From: Octopus vulgaris
Taxonomy: Eukaryota
DNA length: 64,000 nt
Reading direction: 5' to 3'
NCBI GenBank assembly: GCA_951406725.2
Contig: OX597818.1
Location: forward strand, 125,178,001-125,242,000
Position numbers and translations under genes: made by a program. The notes beneath the pieces were generated by a model, which worked only from the letters and a program-made list of their open reading frames with translations, was not told where the DNA came from and made no database searches. This document shows, in pieces, positions 1 to 40,279 of this stretch. Position 1 is the first letter of the stretch, and each line of letters begins with the position of its first letter.

Positions 1-174
1 TCCGATGGCCGGATAACTGAAGAGATGGCGGCGTGGATTTCCACCCCGACATCCGGAACACGGAGTTTTATCATGGCTACCGAATAATTTTCACATATTA
101 CATGTACAGATAAATTCCTCTATTTACATAATATCGAGGTCTCTTTCATTCTTTTGTTGTCTTCCCATTTTTAT

Positions 175-5194: not shown

Positions 5195-5617
5195 CAATTA
5201 GTCAATATAGGGTAGCAAAAAATTCAATAGAAATTTATCGCCACCAGCGGTCTAGTGAGAAAGAGAAAATAGTCATAGACTATATATATAAATTCAACAT
5301 CAATTGAGGAATGGCCTTAATAGGCCATTCGACCCACTAGAAAGAGCAGCCAGGACTCAAACCGCCAAGTAGTAGTAATTCAGAAATTAAAGGAAAATTT
5401 AAAAACATTTACCCTAATTCATCTTTAGACAATGCATTGTTTCGGTGTTTTTAATGGCAAACCAGCTTAATTAAATTAAATTAAGTCAATTGTTGTTGAA
5501 TTTATATATATATGTATATATAGTCAATGATAATAAGGGTAAAATTAATTAATTAGTAATTAATAATTTTACCAACCAGTGTTGAGTATGTAAAAAGACC
5601 ATTTACGGTATATTTAA

Positions 5618-5945
5618 AACATTACTTTATATAATTAGGGTTCAACAAAAAAATTTTACTTTACCACACACCGAACTTTTAGAAATAGCAGCCAAAGAAT
5701 TTAGCTATTTCCTCTAATATAAGAAGAGTCTCCCAGACAGCGTATACTCAACAACAATTCACGTAGGCATATGCCTAAATTATTTGGCTGCTATATGCCT
5801 ACGTGAATTGTTTTTGAGTATACATTGTCTGGGAGACTCTTCTTATATTAGAGGAAATAGCTAAATTCTTTGGCTGCTATTTCTAAAAGTTCAGTGTGTG
5901 GTAAAGGAAAATTTTTTTGCTGAACCCTTATTATATAAAGTAATG

Positions 5946-5947
<2 letters not shown>
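5618..5947. repeat. Long inverted repeat (155-bp arms, 20-bp spacer) abutting (TA)n
   Basis: 5618-5772 is the reverse complement of 5793-5947 with a few mismatches. Confidence 0.95.
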
Positions 5948-6011
<64 letters not shown>

Positions 6012-21782: not shown

Positions 21783-21872
<90 letters not shown>

Positions 21873-22030
21873 AATATATAATTGAGTAGTTGAATGAATT
21901 ATCTTATTATGGATAATTCGGTTAACCGATACCTGGGTAGCAAATTCACGTCAGAAAAACACGGTTGAAGCTACATGCCTAGGGCAGAGATCACGTGGAA
22001 ATTTGTGTGTTTTTTTTTAAATACAAATAA

Positions 22031-22396
22031 ATGAAAGAATGGAGTTGAACGACGAATTAACAAAATTCCTTTATTTTATTTTCGACATATGTTTCGAAGG
22101 CTGCATATTCCTAATTTCGAAGGAATAAGGGGTGCATTATGCCACCTTCTCATCAGGAATAGTAAGGAACTTATGTCAGCATCAAGATGCACAAAAATTA
22201 TCGCTATGGGCACCGTGTGGGCAGGCATCTAAACATGTTTGTGCATCTTGATGCTGACATAAGTTCCTTACTTTTCCTGATGAGAAGGCGGCATAATGCA
22301 CCCCTTATTCCTTCGAAATTAGGAATATGCAGCCTTCGAAACATATGTCGAAAATAAAATAAAGGAATTTTGTTAATTCGTCGTTCAACTCCATTC

Positions 22397-22402
<6 letters not shown>
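22031..22402. repeat. Long inverted repeat (165-bp arms, 42-bp spacer, 2 mismatches) abutting (TA)n
   Basis: 22031-22195 is the reverse complement of 22238-22402. Confidence 0.97.
22272..22354 (+). ncRNA. Type I hammerhead ribozyme motif (mirror copy on the - strand at ~22079-22161)
   Basis: TTTTC-CTGATGA-GAAGGC...GCCTTC-GAAAC-ATAT-GTC-GAAAA: full catalytic core, helices I and II paired, GUC cleavage triplet, palindromic helix III. Confidence 0.82.
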
Positions 22403-22450
<48 letters not shown>

Positions 22451-22469
22451 ACACACTTACAACCCCACC

Positions 22470-23646
22470 CAGAGTCGGCTGAAAAGTTTTGAGGCTAGCC
22501 AAGATACTCTCATGGAATGTGACCAATTTTTTAAACATACTATCTCTTGCAGTCCACACACTACTTCCATCGGTGCTGCAGTGCTTGGATCCCATTGGTG
22601 AAGAAGCTTTCATCCTGTTAGTAAAAAAAGTCATCACCAACAGATGTAGCATCATCATCACTGCAGTACTGATTCCCAGTCAAGTATTTTTTCGCGTTGA
22701 GTAACATATGATAGTCAGATGAGGCCAAATCAGGAGAATAATCAGGGTGATCAACCAGTTCAGAGCCACAGTCCGGCATGGTAGTAGTTGAAATCAAAGA
22801 CTTGTATGCTAGAGTATAGTCCCAATGAAACAACACCCCTATCGTCAGTTTTCTTGATCGCTTGGTCTTGATAGCCTTTCGTACCTGCCTGAGCAAGTTG
22901 ACACAGTACTCTCCATTGGCACTTTTGAATATAGTCGTCTCAAAAACTGTAGATGAAATGATCTTGGCCTTCTTTGGAGCAGGTGAAGAAGGGTGTTTCC
23001 ACTGCATGGATTACCTCTTTGTCTCTGGCTCAAAGTGATGAACCCAATACTCATCCTGGGTTAGAAAACGTTCAAAGAAACCAGCTGGATCTGTCTCAAA
23101 CAATGTCAGATTTTCCCATGATGTGATCAGCTTGGTCGCTTTTGATCATGTGTCAGATGTGGAACCCACCGAACAGAAACCTTCGTCATATCAAGTTCAT
23201 TGTGCAGAATATTCTCAACTCTCTCGCAGGATGTGCTAATAGCATTGGCTCTTTGATTTATAGTCAATCGGCTGTCATCCATCACCATATGCTGAACACA
23301 GTTAATGCTTTCCTCAGTGGAGGGCAGCTGCAGGATGTCCAAACCTTGGGTCGTCTTTAAGACCCTTCCTCTTCAAAATCCAGCTGCATACCTTTGCACT
23401 GTTGATAAATCTGGAGCATCATTCCCTAATGTAGCAACCATGTCAGCATGAATGTCCTTGGCGTCTAAACCCGATGCCAAATTTTGTCCATTTTCAAGAA
23501 AAGTTGCTACTAGTTACTTTTGAAGTGTTCTTTGAACAGTAAAATGTCGGTTTACATGAAAAAAAACAATGAAATTGTTAATAAGAAGTGTTGAAATTAA
23601 TACATGCAAGATTTCACAGCTCTATGAACTTTTCAGCCCACCCTCG
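22470..23646 (-). mobile_element. Degenerate near-full-length mariner transposon
   Basis: Minus-strand fragments WVPHLT, MQWKHPSSPAPKKAK, HPDYSPDLASSDY; inverted GGCTGAAAAGTT termini. Confidence 0.88.
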
Positions 23647-25653: not shown

Positions 25654-26030
25654 TTTGAGTCTGTGTTTGTCCCACCACCATCGCTTGATAGTCGATGTTG
25701 GTGTGTTTACGTCCCCGTAATATAGTGGTTCGGCAAAAGATACCGATAGAAAAAGTACTAGGCTTACAAAGAACAAGTCCTAGGGTCGTTTTGTTCGACT
25801 AAAGGGTGTGCTTCGAAAGTTTTAAAAATACAACTAAAATATTGCTTACGGCCATATCAGGTTGAAAGCACCAGTTCTCGTCCGATCACCGAAGTTAAGC
25901 AACGTGGAGCCTAGTTAGTACTTAGATGGGTGACCACTTGGGAAACCTAGGTGCTGTAAGCGTCACACATTTTGTAAAGGCAGTGCTCCAGCATGGCCGC
26001 TGTCAAATGACTGAAACAAGTAAAAGTAAA
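25393..26030 (+). mobile_element. SINE family A interrupted by a 5S rDNA insert
   Basis: Family A sequence runs to ...TTCGACTAAAGG, is interrupted for 169 bp, and resumes TAAAGGCAGTGCTCCAGCATGG. Confidence 0.88.
25844..25963 (+). rRNA. 5S rRNA: 5S rRNA gene copy (probably a dispersed pseudogene)
   Basis: GCTTACGGCCATA...TCTCGTCCGATCACCGAAGTTAAGCAACG...TTAGTACTTAGATGGGTGACC...GGTGCTGTAAGC; ends pair (GCTTACGGC/GCTGTAAGC); box A and box C present; T4 at 25970-25973. Confidence 0.92.
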
Positions 26031-38369: not shown

Positions 38370-38578
38370 TCAAAATGTGACCGCGCGTGTACCGTTGGCG
38401 ATTTTTTTCCTCCGTCTTCCCTTCTTTGGATCTTTCCTTTTCCTAGGTTTCTGACGAAGAGCTCCGCTCGAAACGTTAAACCATCCTTCTTTCCTTCTTT
38501 CCTGAGCGTCCAATAATACTATACTTGTTCCACGTCCTCGCGTTGGTGTGTTTTCTCTTTGTGTTTTCATGTTTGGAT

Positions 38579-38583
<5 letters not shown>
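38370..38583 (+). mobile_element. Penelope-like terminal module P1
   Basis: Homologous to 8184-8385, 17880-18070 and 40615-40795; ends GGATTAAC(TA)n. Confidence 0.72.
38446..38482 (+). ncRNA. Minimal type I hammerhead ribozyme motif
   Basis: GGTTT-CTGACGA-A-GAGC-TCC-GCTC-GAAAC-GTT-AAACC; helix I GGTTT/AAACC; loop-less palindromic helix III (ACGT). Confidence 0.75.
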
Positions 38584-38640
<57 letters not shown>

Positions 38641-38645
<5 letters not shown>

Positions 38646-38976
38646 ATAGTTATCGCCATACTAATATGGCATTCTTATAAAAATAAGAAAAAGCTGTCCG
38701 CTTATTAGCTCCATGAGGCCATCGCCTTAAGTTAGCTATTTGATACACAAACTGTATCCATATAACCTTCGAACAAGGGAGGTCAGTCGCTCCACACTAC
38801 TTGACCGGCAGCTAAGTAGTGTGGAGCGACTGACCTCCCTTGTTCGAAGGTTATATGGATACAGTTTGTGTATCAAATAGCTAACTTAAGGCGATGGCCT
38901 CATGGAGCTAATAAGCGGACAGTTTTTTTCTTATTTTTATAAGAATGCCATATTAGTATGGCGATAACTATTATTT
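38641..38976. repeat. Long inverted repeat (~162-bp arms, 11-bp spacer) abutting (TA)n
   Basis: 38641-38802 is the reverse complement of 38814-38976, differing only in an A/T run. Confidence 0.97.
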
Positions 38977-39075
38977 TCCGGGAACGCTGCCGCTCTTCTC
39001 TTTTAGAGAGACTTAGTAATTTTAATATTTCTATTATATATATATACATATATATATATACATATATGTATATAT

Positions 39076-40220: not shown

Positions 40221-40279
40221 TATCACTGACGAAGAGAGGGCTCTTAGTAGCTAACTCTGAAATCGGTCCGATATGGTAA
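40221..40279 (+). ncRNA. Type I hammerhead ribozyme motif
   Basis: TATCA-CTGACGA-AGAG...CTCT-GAAA-TCGGTCCG-ATA-TGGTA. Confidence 0.6.

Follow-up and report, generated by a model that had tools for sequence, protein, structure and literature searches.

A hammerhead-bearing palindrome in a TA repeat of Octopus vulgaris as the likely by-product of a Penelope-like element insertion

A near-perfect palindrome that carries hammerhead ribozyme motifs and lies inside a TA repeat could be a mobile ribozyme cassette or the remains of something else. This question is raised by a locus within a 64,000-nucleotide stretch of the Octopus vulgaris genome (hereafter the window), for which a first-pass annotation proposed a young, non-autonomous element with one ribozyme in each arm. 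We hold with considerable confidence that the palindrome consists of two 5'-truncated copies of that end of a Penelope-like element (PLE) which carries the hammerhead; they are set head to head in a TA repeat and were likely produced in one insertion primed from both target ends. In other words, it is likely a by-product of PLE insertion and not a mobile ribozyme cassette.

The inverted repeat, the top one in the window, has 165-bp arms at 22031-22195 and 22238-22402, and a complementarity check bore out the two mismatches described earlier (22144/22289 and 22160/22273; divergence 1.2%). Positions in the element are given as q coordinates, in which q1 is window position 22197. Alignment to a natural copy (L158) identified the left side as a long-ended arm (21880..22197, - strand), a 5'-truncated pLTR copy running from q40 to q366, whose 3' end adjoins the left target tract, (CA)n followed by a short (TA)n (21786..21879). 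The extension of about 150 bp noticed on this side measures 150 bp, ends at 21880 against the TA/CA tract and is a one-sided tail (21880..22030, -) lying between the two 3' end sites of the family; in full-length copies (L131, L133, L134, L285), from which the tail was recognised, this region leads to the start of an ORF about 50 nt beyond. The right side is a short-ended arm (22197..22402, +) that extends from an initiator-like +1 (q1) to the internal end site and adjoins (TA)24 at 22401..22448, in agreement with the proposed docking in (TA)n. What had been taken for a spacer with an identity of its own (22198..22237, +) is, by alignment, the 5' leader of the right arm alone; the two arms overlap by 1 nt at 22197, a central junction absent from every other copy read. 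The youth attributed to the copy is supported by the 1.2% divergence of its arms and by the identity of the right arm to two other copies (99% to L031 over 204 nt; 100% to L034 over 165 nt). No target-site duplication was resolvable within the repeat tracts. As annotated, the window is free of PLE coding sequence, the sole tblastn match being of 20 aa and derived from an inverted arm inside the query frame.

Perfect inverted repeats beside microsatellites are an error-prone class, and an assembly or long-read fold-back artefact has to be considered. It is hardly credible here: the arms have two differences, the structure is asymmetric and the flanks are unique, and dozens of loci, as well as other families in the window, show the same build around different centres.

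Other features of the window were also recorded. Broken transposase frames, which we take to be mariner-like from their motifs, lie at 22480-23510 (-), immediately right of the TA tract, and a full-length 5S rRNA match (107.7 bits, Rfam) is located at 25844-25962 (+). A TA-flanked palindrome of another family at 38640-39035 has the same asymmetric build (arms of about 170 bp, one-sided tail of 57 bp) with no hammerhead core by descriptor, and a third palindrome, of an unrelated family, at 5609-5956 (92% over 351 bp) ends in (TA)n. A compact hammerhead motif of another repeat family is present at 38451-38490 (+), that family's 3' end adjoining (TA)n at 38585, and the loose hammerhead descriptor also matches at 40226 (+).

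The right arm of the palindrome holds a complete type I hammerhead motif (22272..22354, +) that passes the descriptor, as had been read from the letters, with CTGATGA at 22277, GAAAC at 22338 and GTC ending at 22349. It comprises helix I of 5 bp (22272-76/22350-54), the core (22277-83), helix II of 6 bp (22284-89/22332-37), GAAA (22338-41) and helix III of 2 bp closed by the self-complementary ACATATGT, and the cut is predicted after 22349. The same motif had been claimed for the left arm; it is indeed there (22079..22161, -), with a C-to-T change at 22144, but its helix I is broken by the change at 22160 and it therefore does not pass the descriptor. The background of the descriptor was 0.07 loose and 0 strict matches per dinucleotide-shuffled window (30 shuffles). 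The Rfam hammerhead models gave no match in the window either at the gathering score or at E≤10, and the Rfam miRNA matches in the window were sub-threshold and reflect the hairpin. In 16 distinct copies, most of which were reached by way of the protein or because they lie next to other copies, pairing holds in 92% of the cells of the named structure, compared with 38-58% with slid partners. Three pairs had changes on both sides; since the shuffle control was weak (6-394 of 500), we regard the conservation of the structure as moderate evidence.

The short palindromic helix III places this motif in the dimer type, as proposed in the first-pass annotation; this form is dimer-dependent in the hammerheads of metazoan PLEs, which are poor cleavers in vitro (PMC4209133). 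The fold of the right-arm hammerhead was calculated at -26.7 kcal/mol, which lies 5.3 kcal/mol above the MFE. The value for inter-molecular pairing of helix III was -8.4 kcal/mol, and that for the hairpin of the full palindrome -292 kcal/mol. Owing to the head-to-head geometry, the antisense arm comes first in read-through transcripts of both strands. Because the predicted hairpin far outweighs the hammerhead fold and the antisense arm is made first, self-cleavage inside the palindrome is predicted to be blocked. These values, and the lack of promoter-like motifs at this copy, make the suggested competition between cleavage and hairpin formation doubtful. Between 35 and 54% of the query words were present in 14 sequencing runs guessed to be RNA, a figure that carries no evidential weight.

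The locus belongs to an abundant family. A search with 21880-22402 turned up 2,794 candidates in the 2.8-Gb genome, and the 40 of them that were scored gave at least 82 matches. Exact pattern matches genome-wide numbered 178 for the leader, 1,627 for the hammerhead (older subfamilies included), 1,210 for the motif downstream of the cut and 513 for the tail, and reversed control patterns gave 0 matches. The centres of the palindromes were examined in the 26 best-matching two-armed loci, 24 of which were readable. All 24 differed, each centre being a distinct pair of truncations of one leader, and the longer side lay on the left in some and on the right in others. Therefore, the palindrome is not a fixed mobile unit. 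Its homologues are, in substance, the ends of a Penelope element encoding RT and endonuclease (EN), with unique junctions, and the earlier idea of a non-autonomous palindromic element has to be replaced. For the same reason the locus does not match a MITE, a foldback element or another fixed palindromic unit, which would share an internal junction; in addition, its termini are asymmetric. Neither was the layout of non-LTR retrozymes found, since there is no tandem repeat at the locus and the arms of the sample described below are head to head or single. We also considered a SINE-like unit having a fixed 5' end and rejected it, since longer copies run into an ORF. One single-armed copy (L031:4735-5180) has a 14-bp stretch repeated on either side of it, outside TA runs, which may be a target-site duplication.

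The two arms of a copy carry common subfamily letters, and their private changes occurred in one arm 62 times and were shared 11 times (34 two-armed copies; 2 of 36 loci were left out for short arms). On these grounds the arms began alike and decay separately; concerted evolution, looked for in the same 34 copies, was not found. A palindromic element could also have moved as a unit, each copy later losing a different part of its centre, and deletion at a palindrome centre is a route to such loss. The fixed outer ends, the ease with which 36 near-full two-armed copies were found and the subfamily letters common to the arms would agree with this; nevertheless, we consider it very improbable, given that no junction recurs, that arms range from about 20 nt to 3.5 kb, the longest entering the ORF of the autonomous element, and that the arms are not homogenised. 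Moreover, both hammerheads are whole in only 13 of 52 two-armed insertions.

The nature of the parent element was established from the longer copies, which upstream of the leader have a 3' UTR of about 500 nt and then an endonuclease and RT frame. In them the frame is open over 833, 741, 804, 713 and 693 aa, and seven of the eight long copies fetched have 537-833 aa. The frames of 693-833 aa show the RT motifs QFDI..FYPS, YRDD and FLDV and the endonuclease motifs IY..YIG..R..NH upstream of the same pLTR. The arms of the window copy, 90-99% identical to the terminal regions of ORF-bearing L131 and L132, are the pLTR of this RT and EN element, and their proposed kinship with PLEs is upheld. In L133, L134 and L285 the order is inverted arm, direct pLTR, ORF and 3' pLTR; these three copies and L131 display a partial tandem and/or a 5' inversion of the pLTR, with the tail at one end. 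Neither Pfam, for the element ORF and for three homologues, nor a PDB profile search with the ORF gave a significant match, so the names given to the RT and the GIY-YIG-type domains rest on motif alignment.

The element protein has DKT, lacks CCHH and contains CxxC and CxH around the conserved E and N of the endonuclease; the RWK position reads RWL in L133. The CxCX5C linker that precedes the endonuclease in 10 of 10 homologues is absent from 4 of 4 aligned copies, which have an Asn-rich insert of about 110 aa in its place. In spite of the missing cysteine linker, the family has (TA)n targets (ORFs of L131-L135). From its sequence, the parent element is filed as an EN+ PLE of Hydra-like type, strict membership of the Hydra clade being withheld for want of the CxCX5C linker. 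Among the six copies that cross the tail-ORF junction, none had both an intact full-length ORF and a promoter upstream of it. Two copies (L284:1521-2450 and L154:3968-4497) are internally deleted, the first 200 nt or so of the ORF joining just upstream of q1, and present a partial pLTR tandem without coding body; their junctions differ slightly, and such derivatives are possibly a first step towards a retrozyme-like unit. At L002:1200-1500 (-) the element lies in a short TA run inside the endonuclease frame of a different element, which we presume from a motif to be of Penelope type.

In order to describe how the arms end, we sampled by position the first 100 of the 1,210 matches of the downstream motif (all of C1, and C2 to 36.5 Mb). 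Of 114 arms mapped, 15 from loci outside those matches were removed, leaving 99. The outer ends of these arms cluster at two fixed positions separated by 150 nt, a short class at q192-230 (67 arms) and a long class at q344-366 (32 arms). Among the two-armed insertions (n=52, after removing one double count and taking the duplicated pair L246/L247 once), 50 paired a long with a short arm, two were short with short and none was long with long (P=3e-13 against independent choice). The window copy obeys this rule, with a short-ended right arm from q1 and a long-ended left arm from q40. No partner was detected within 40 nt for 33 of the 99 arms; four of these exceed the reference, one is at a gap, one is the mate of a counted arm, one is separated from its mate by an insert, and the majority of the others join (TA)n directly. 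Arms overlapped by 0-6 nt at 34 of the 52 junctions and were separated by 1-34 nt of filler at 18, local-alignment ends being uncertain by a few bases at AT-rich joins.

These pairs bear on a second explanation, in which a single cDNA (or an antisense template) snaps back or primes itself and is copied into the second arm, as proposed for rotifer PLEs (PMC3846280). Near-perfect palindromes with their centre at q1 or q139 occur at some junctions, the overlap is of at least 6 nt in 7 of 52, and L252, a short and short pair symmetric around a TA tract, looks like a fold-back. However, copying by fold-back can only reproduce sequence already in the first strand, and 13 of the 50 long and short pairs have no sequence common to both arms. 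In addition, the short-ended arm reaches further 5' in 30 of these 50 pairs, the window copy included (the long arm in 14; level in 6). The existence of non-overlapping pairs excludes self-priming as a general route, and we judge it improbable as the origin of the inverted arms; a few symmetric cases, L252 among them, may have arisen in this way. Two-ended priming is favoured by the junctions of the octopus family over the self-priming suggested in PMC3846280.

Snap-back cannot yield partners from different families either, and such joins were observed. Arms in L143 and L268 are head to head, with no TA between, with the 3' end of the hammerhead family also present at 38400-38585, and an arm in L131 is joined in the same way to the long end of the family that forms the palindrome at 38640-39035; of these three arms, only L268 lies in the 99-arm sample. 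The joins suggest two RNA templates, although they could also be separate adjacent insertions that left no TA between them.

The 5' ends of the arms were informative as well. Of the 42 arms reaching q4, 18 stop within q-1..4 against 0.9 expected, a pile-up of about 19-fold at the initiator-like site (9.0 stops per 100 nt at risk). The corresponding rate was 0.58, 0.36 and 0.34 across q160-13 (0.47 over q13-160) and 2.4 at q5-12; further upstream it was 1.5 at -30..-2, 0.34 at -120..-31 and 0.10 beyond -120. The pile-up position is the A of a CTCATTAT motif, with TTATAA at -29 and TGACGTCA near -40, which we take to be an initiator, a TATA box and a CRE, respectively. Both CTCATTAT and the upstream TGACGTCA are kept in nearly all copies compared, including subfamilies down to about 73% identity, whereas the oldest subfamily does not retain the TATA-like word, whose spacing is 13 nt shorter in L134 and L138. 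The window copy lacks all three upstream promoter-like motifs and, having no ORF either, is probably inert. There was no excess of 5' ends at the ribozyme cut (q153; 5 seen, 4.1 expected), which fits uncleaved RNA templates.

It must be considered that the pile-up at q1 might reflect microhomology of ATTAT to the TA target, or a pause of the RT, and not the 5' end of an RNA. Weaker clusters of ends occur at AT-rich spots near q97, q110 and q128, and many unpaired arms join (TA)n directly; as ends also gather weakly at these spots and at -30..-2, microhomology explains part of the 5' end pattern. As the cause of the pile-up itself we find it rather unlikely, since 43% of the arms reaching q4 stop within 6 nt compared with 5-9% at other AT-rich words, the stop rate is lowest in the AT-richer upstream region and several q1 ends join a partner arm instead of TA. 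With respect to a pause, no strong hairpin was predicted at q1 (-20.4 kcal/mol over 150 nt).

From genomic end-mapping, the sole basis of the mechanism, we infer the following steps for two-ended priming. The endonuclease of the element would cut both strands of (TA)n. One 3' end would then prime at the distal site of an uncleaved RNA and the other at the proximal site, and each cDNA would extend until the RT drops off or meets the RNA 5' end at the likely transcription start, in a strong-stop-like manner. Finally, the cDNA ends would be joined with an overlap of 0-6 nt or a short filler. Should both cDNAs extend past the hammerhead, a double-hammerhead palindrome such as that of the window would result. 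On balance we lean towards the broader proposition that ordered priming from two ends makes the inverted ends of PLEs, that the cDNAs may come from different RNAs or families, that many ends are strong-stop-like at the transcription start, and that the family can be used as a readout of integration, with (TA)n targeting in the absence of the linker.

Much of this agrees with published PLEs, as far as the consulted portions of the papers cited here describe them. An inverted arm followed by direct pLTR, ORF and pLTR is a known layout (PMC8557442, Fig. 2; PMC3846280), and inverted 5'-truncated pLTRs with a one-sided tail are a PLE signature (PMC8557442). The octopus family resembles Hydra-clade PLEs (PMC8557442) in its single ORF with RT and C-terminal endonuclease, in DKT, the lack of CCHH and the CxxC and CxH motifs, in a hammerhead near the end and in (TA)n targets, its RT motifs matching the alignment by eye. 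It differs in RWL instead of RWK, in the lack of the CxCX5C linker, in the Asn-rich insert and in a unit of about 3.55 kb, compared with less than 3 kb. Hydra-1_Obim of Octopus bimaculoides has a protein and a hammerhead unlike those of our family (PMC8557442), and three short family-specific terms were not found in the supplement of PMC8557442. With EN+ PLEs such as Pen2/Pen3 of Adineta vaga (PMC3846280) it shares the head-to-head inverted pLTR with the tail at one end, TATA- and Inr-like pLTR motifs and Asn-rich ORF inserts. By contrast, its tail is of 150 nt and not of the 30-40 nt found in published PLEs, and many of its insertions consist of two pLTR arms alone.

Regarding the priming step, an anole PLE in vitro cuts and extends both strands with two internal RNA starts and uncleaved RNA (PMC11167929). 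This element, Poseidon of Anolis (PAc), is similar to the octopus family in the two RT starts that bound the tail, in AT-rich targets and in not needing hammerhead cleavage (PMC11167929). It belongs to another clade, and no difference in start site between its strands was seen in the portions consulted (PMC11167929), unlike the genomic pairs of the octopus family, which have one site per side in 50 of 52. Non-LTR retrozymes likewise have a type I hammerhead with short palindromic helix III, derive from PLE pLTRs and lack an ORF (bioRxiv 10.64898/2026.07.22.740005; PMC4209133); they are direct tandem units, each with a hammerhead (bioRxiv 10.64898/2026.07.22.740005), in contrast to the head-to-head pair with variable centre found here.

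In L1 twin priming, two target ends prime on the RNA, giving a 5' inversion with a short overlap at the junction. In the octopus family, by contrast, priming would be at fixed sites for both arms, the same sequence is often present in the two arms, and the partner may belong to a different family. The consulted sections of an octopus repeat annotation report 31 recently active Penelope-like families and leave ribozymes unmentioned (PMC13282606). A description of this family or of the one-site-per-side rule was not found in the literature searched, which does not extend to Repbase or Dfam, and the family, which falls in a known class, has probably not been described before.

Taken by itself, the locus is what a known transposon class ordinarily produces, one among many copies, and inverted pLTRs, tails, PLE hammerheads and PLE-derived retrozymes are already in print. 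Nevertheless, the formation of tandem and inverted PLE ends is named as an open task in PMC8557442, and self-priming on an antisense template is the proposal made in PMC3846280. In this regard, specific predictions for the in vitro PLE system follow from the long and short rule, from the pairs without overlap, from the 5' pile-up and from the joins between families, and a family that lacks the cysteine linker but retains (TA)n targeting is a test of the idea that the linker directs targeting. If ordered two-ended priming is true, this abundant Hydra-like family would provide a genome-scale readout of the mechanism of PLE integration.
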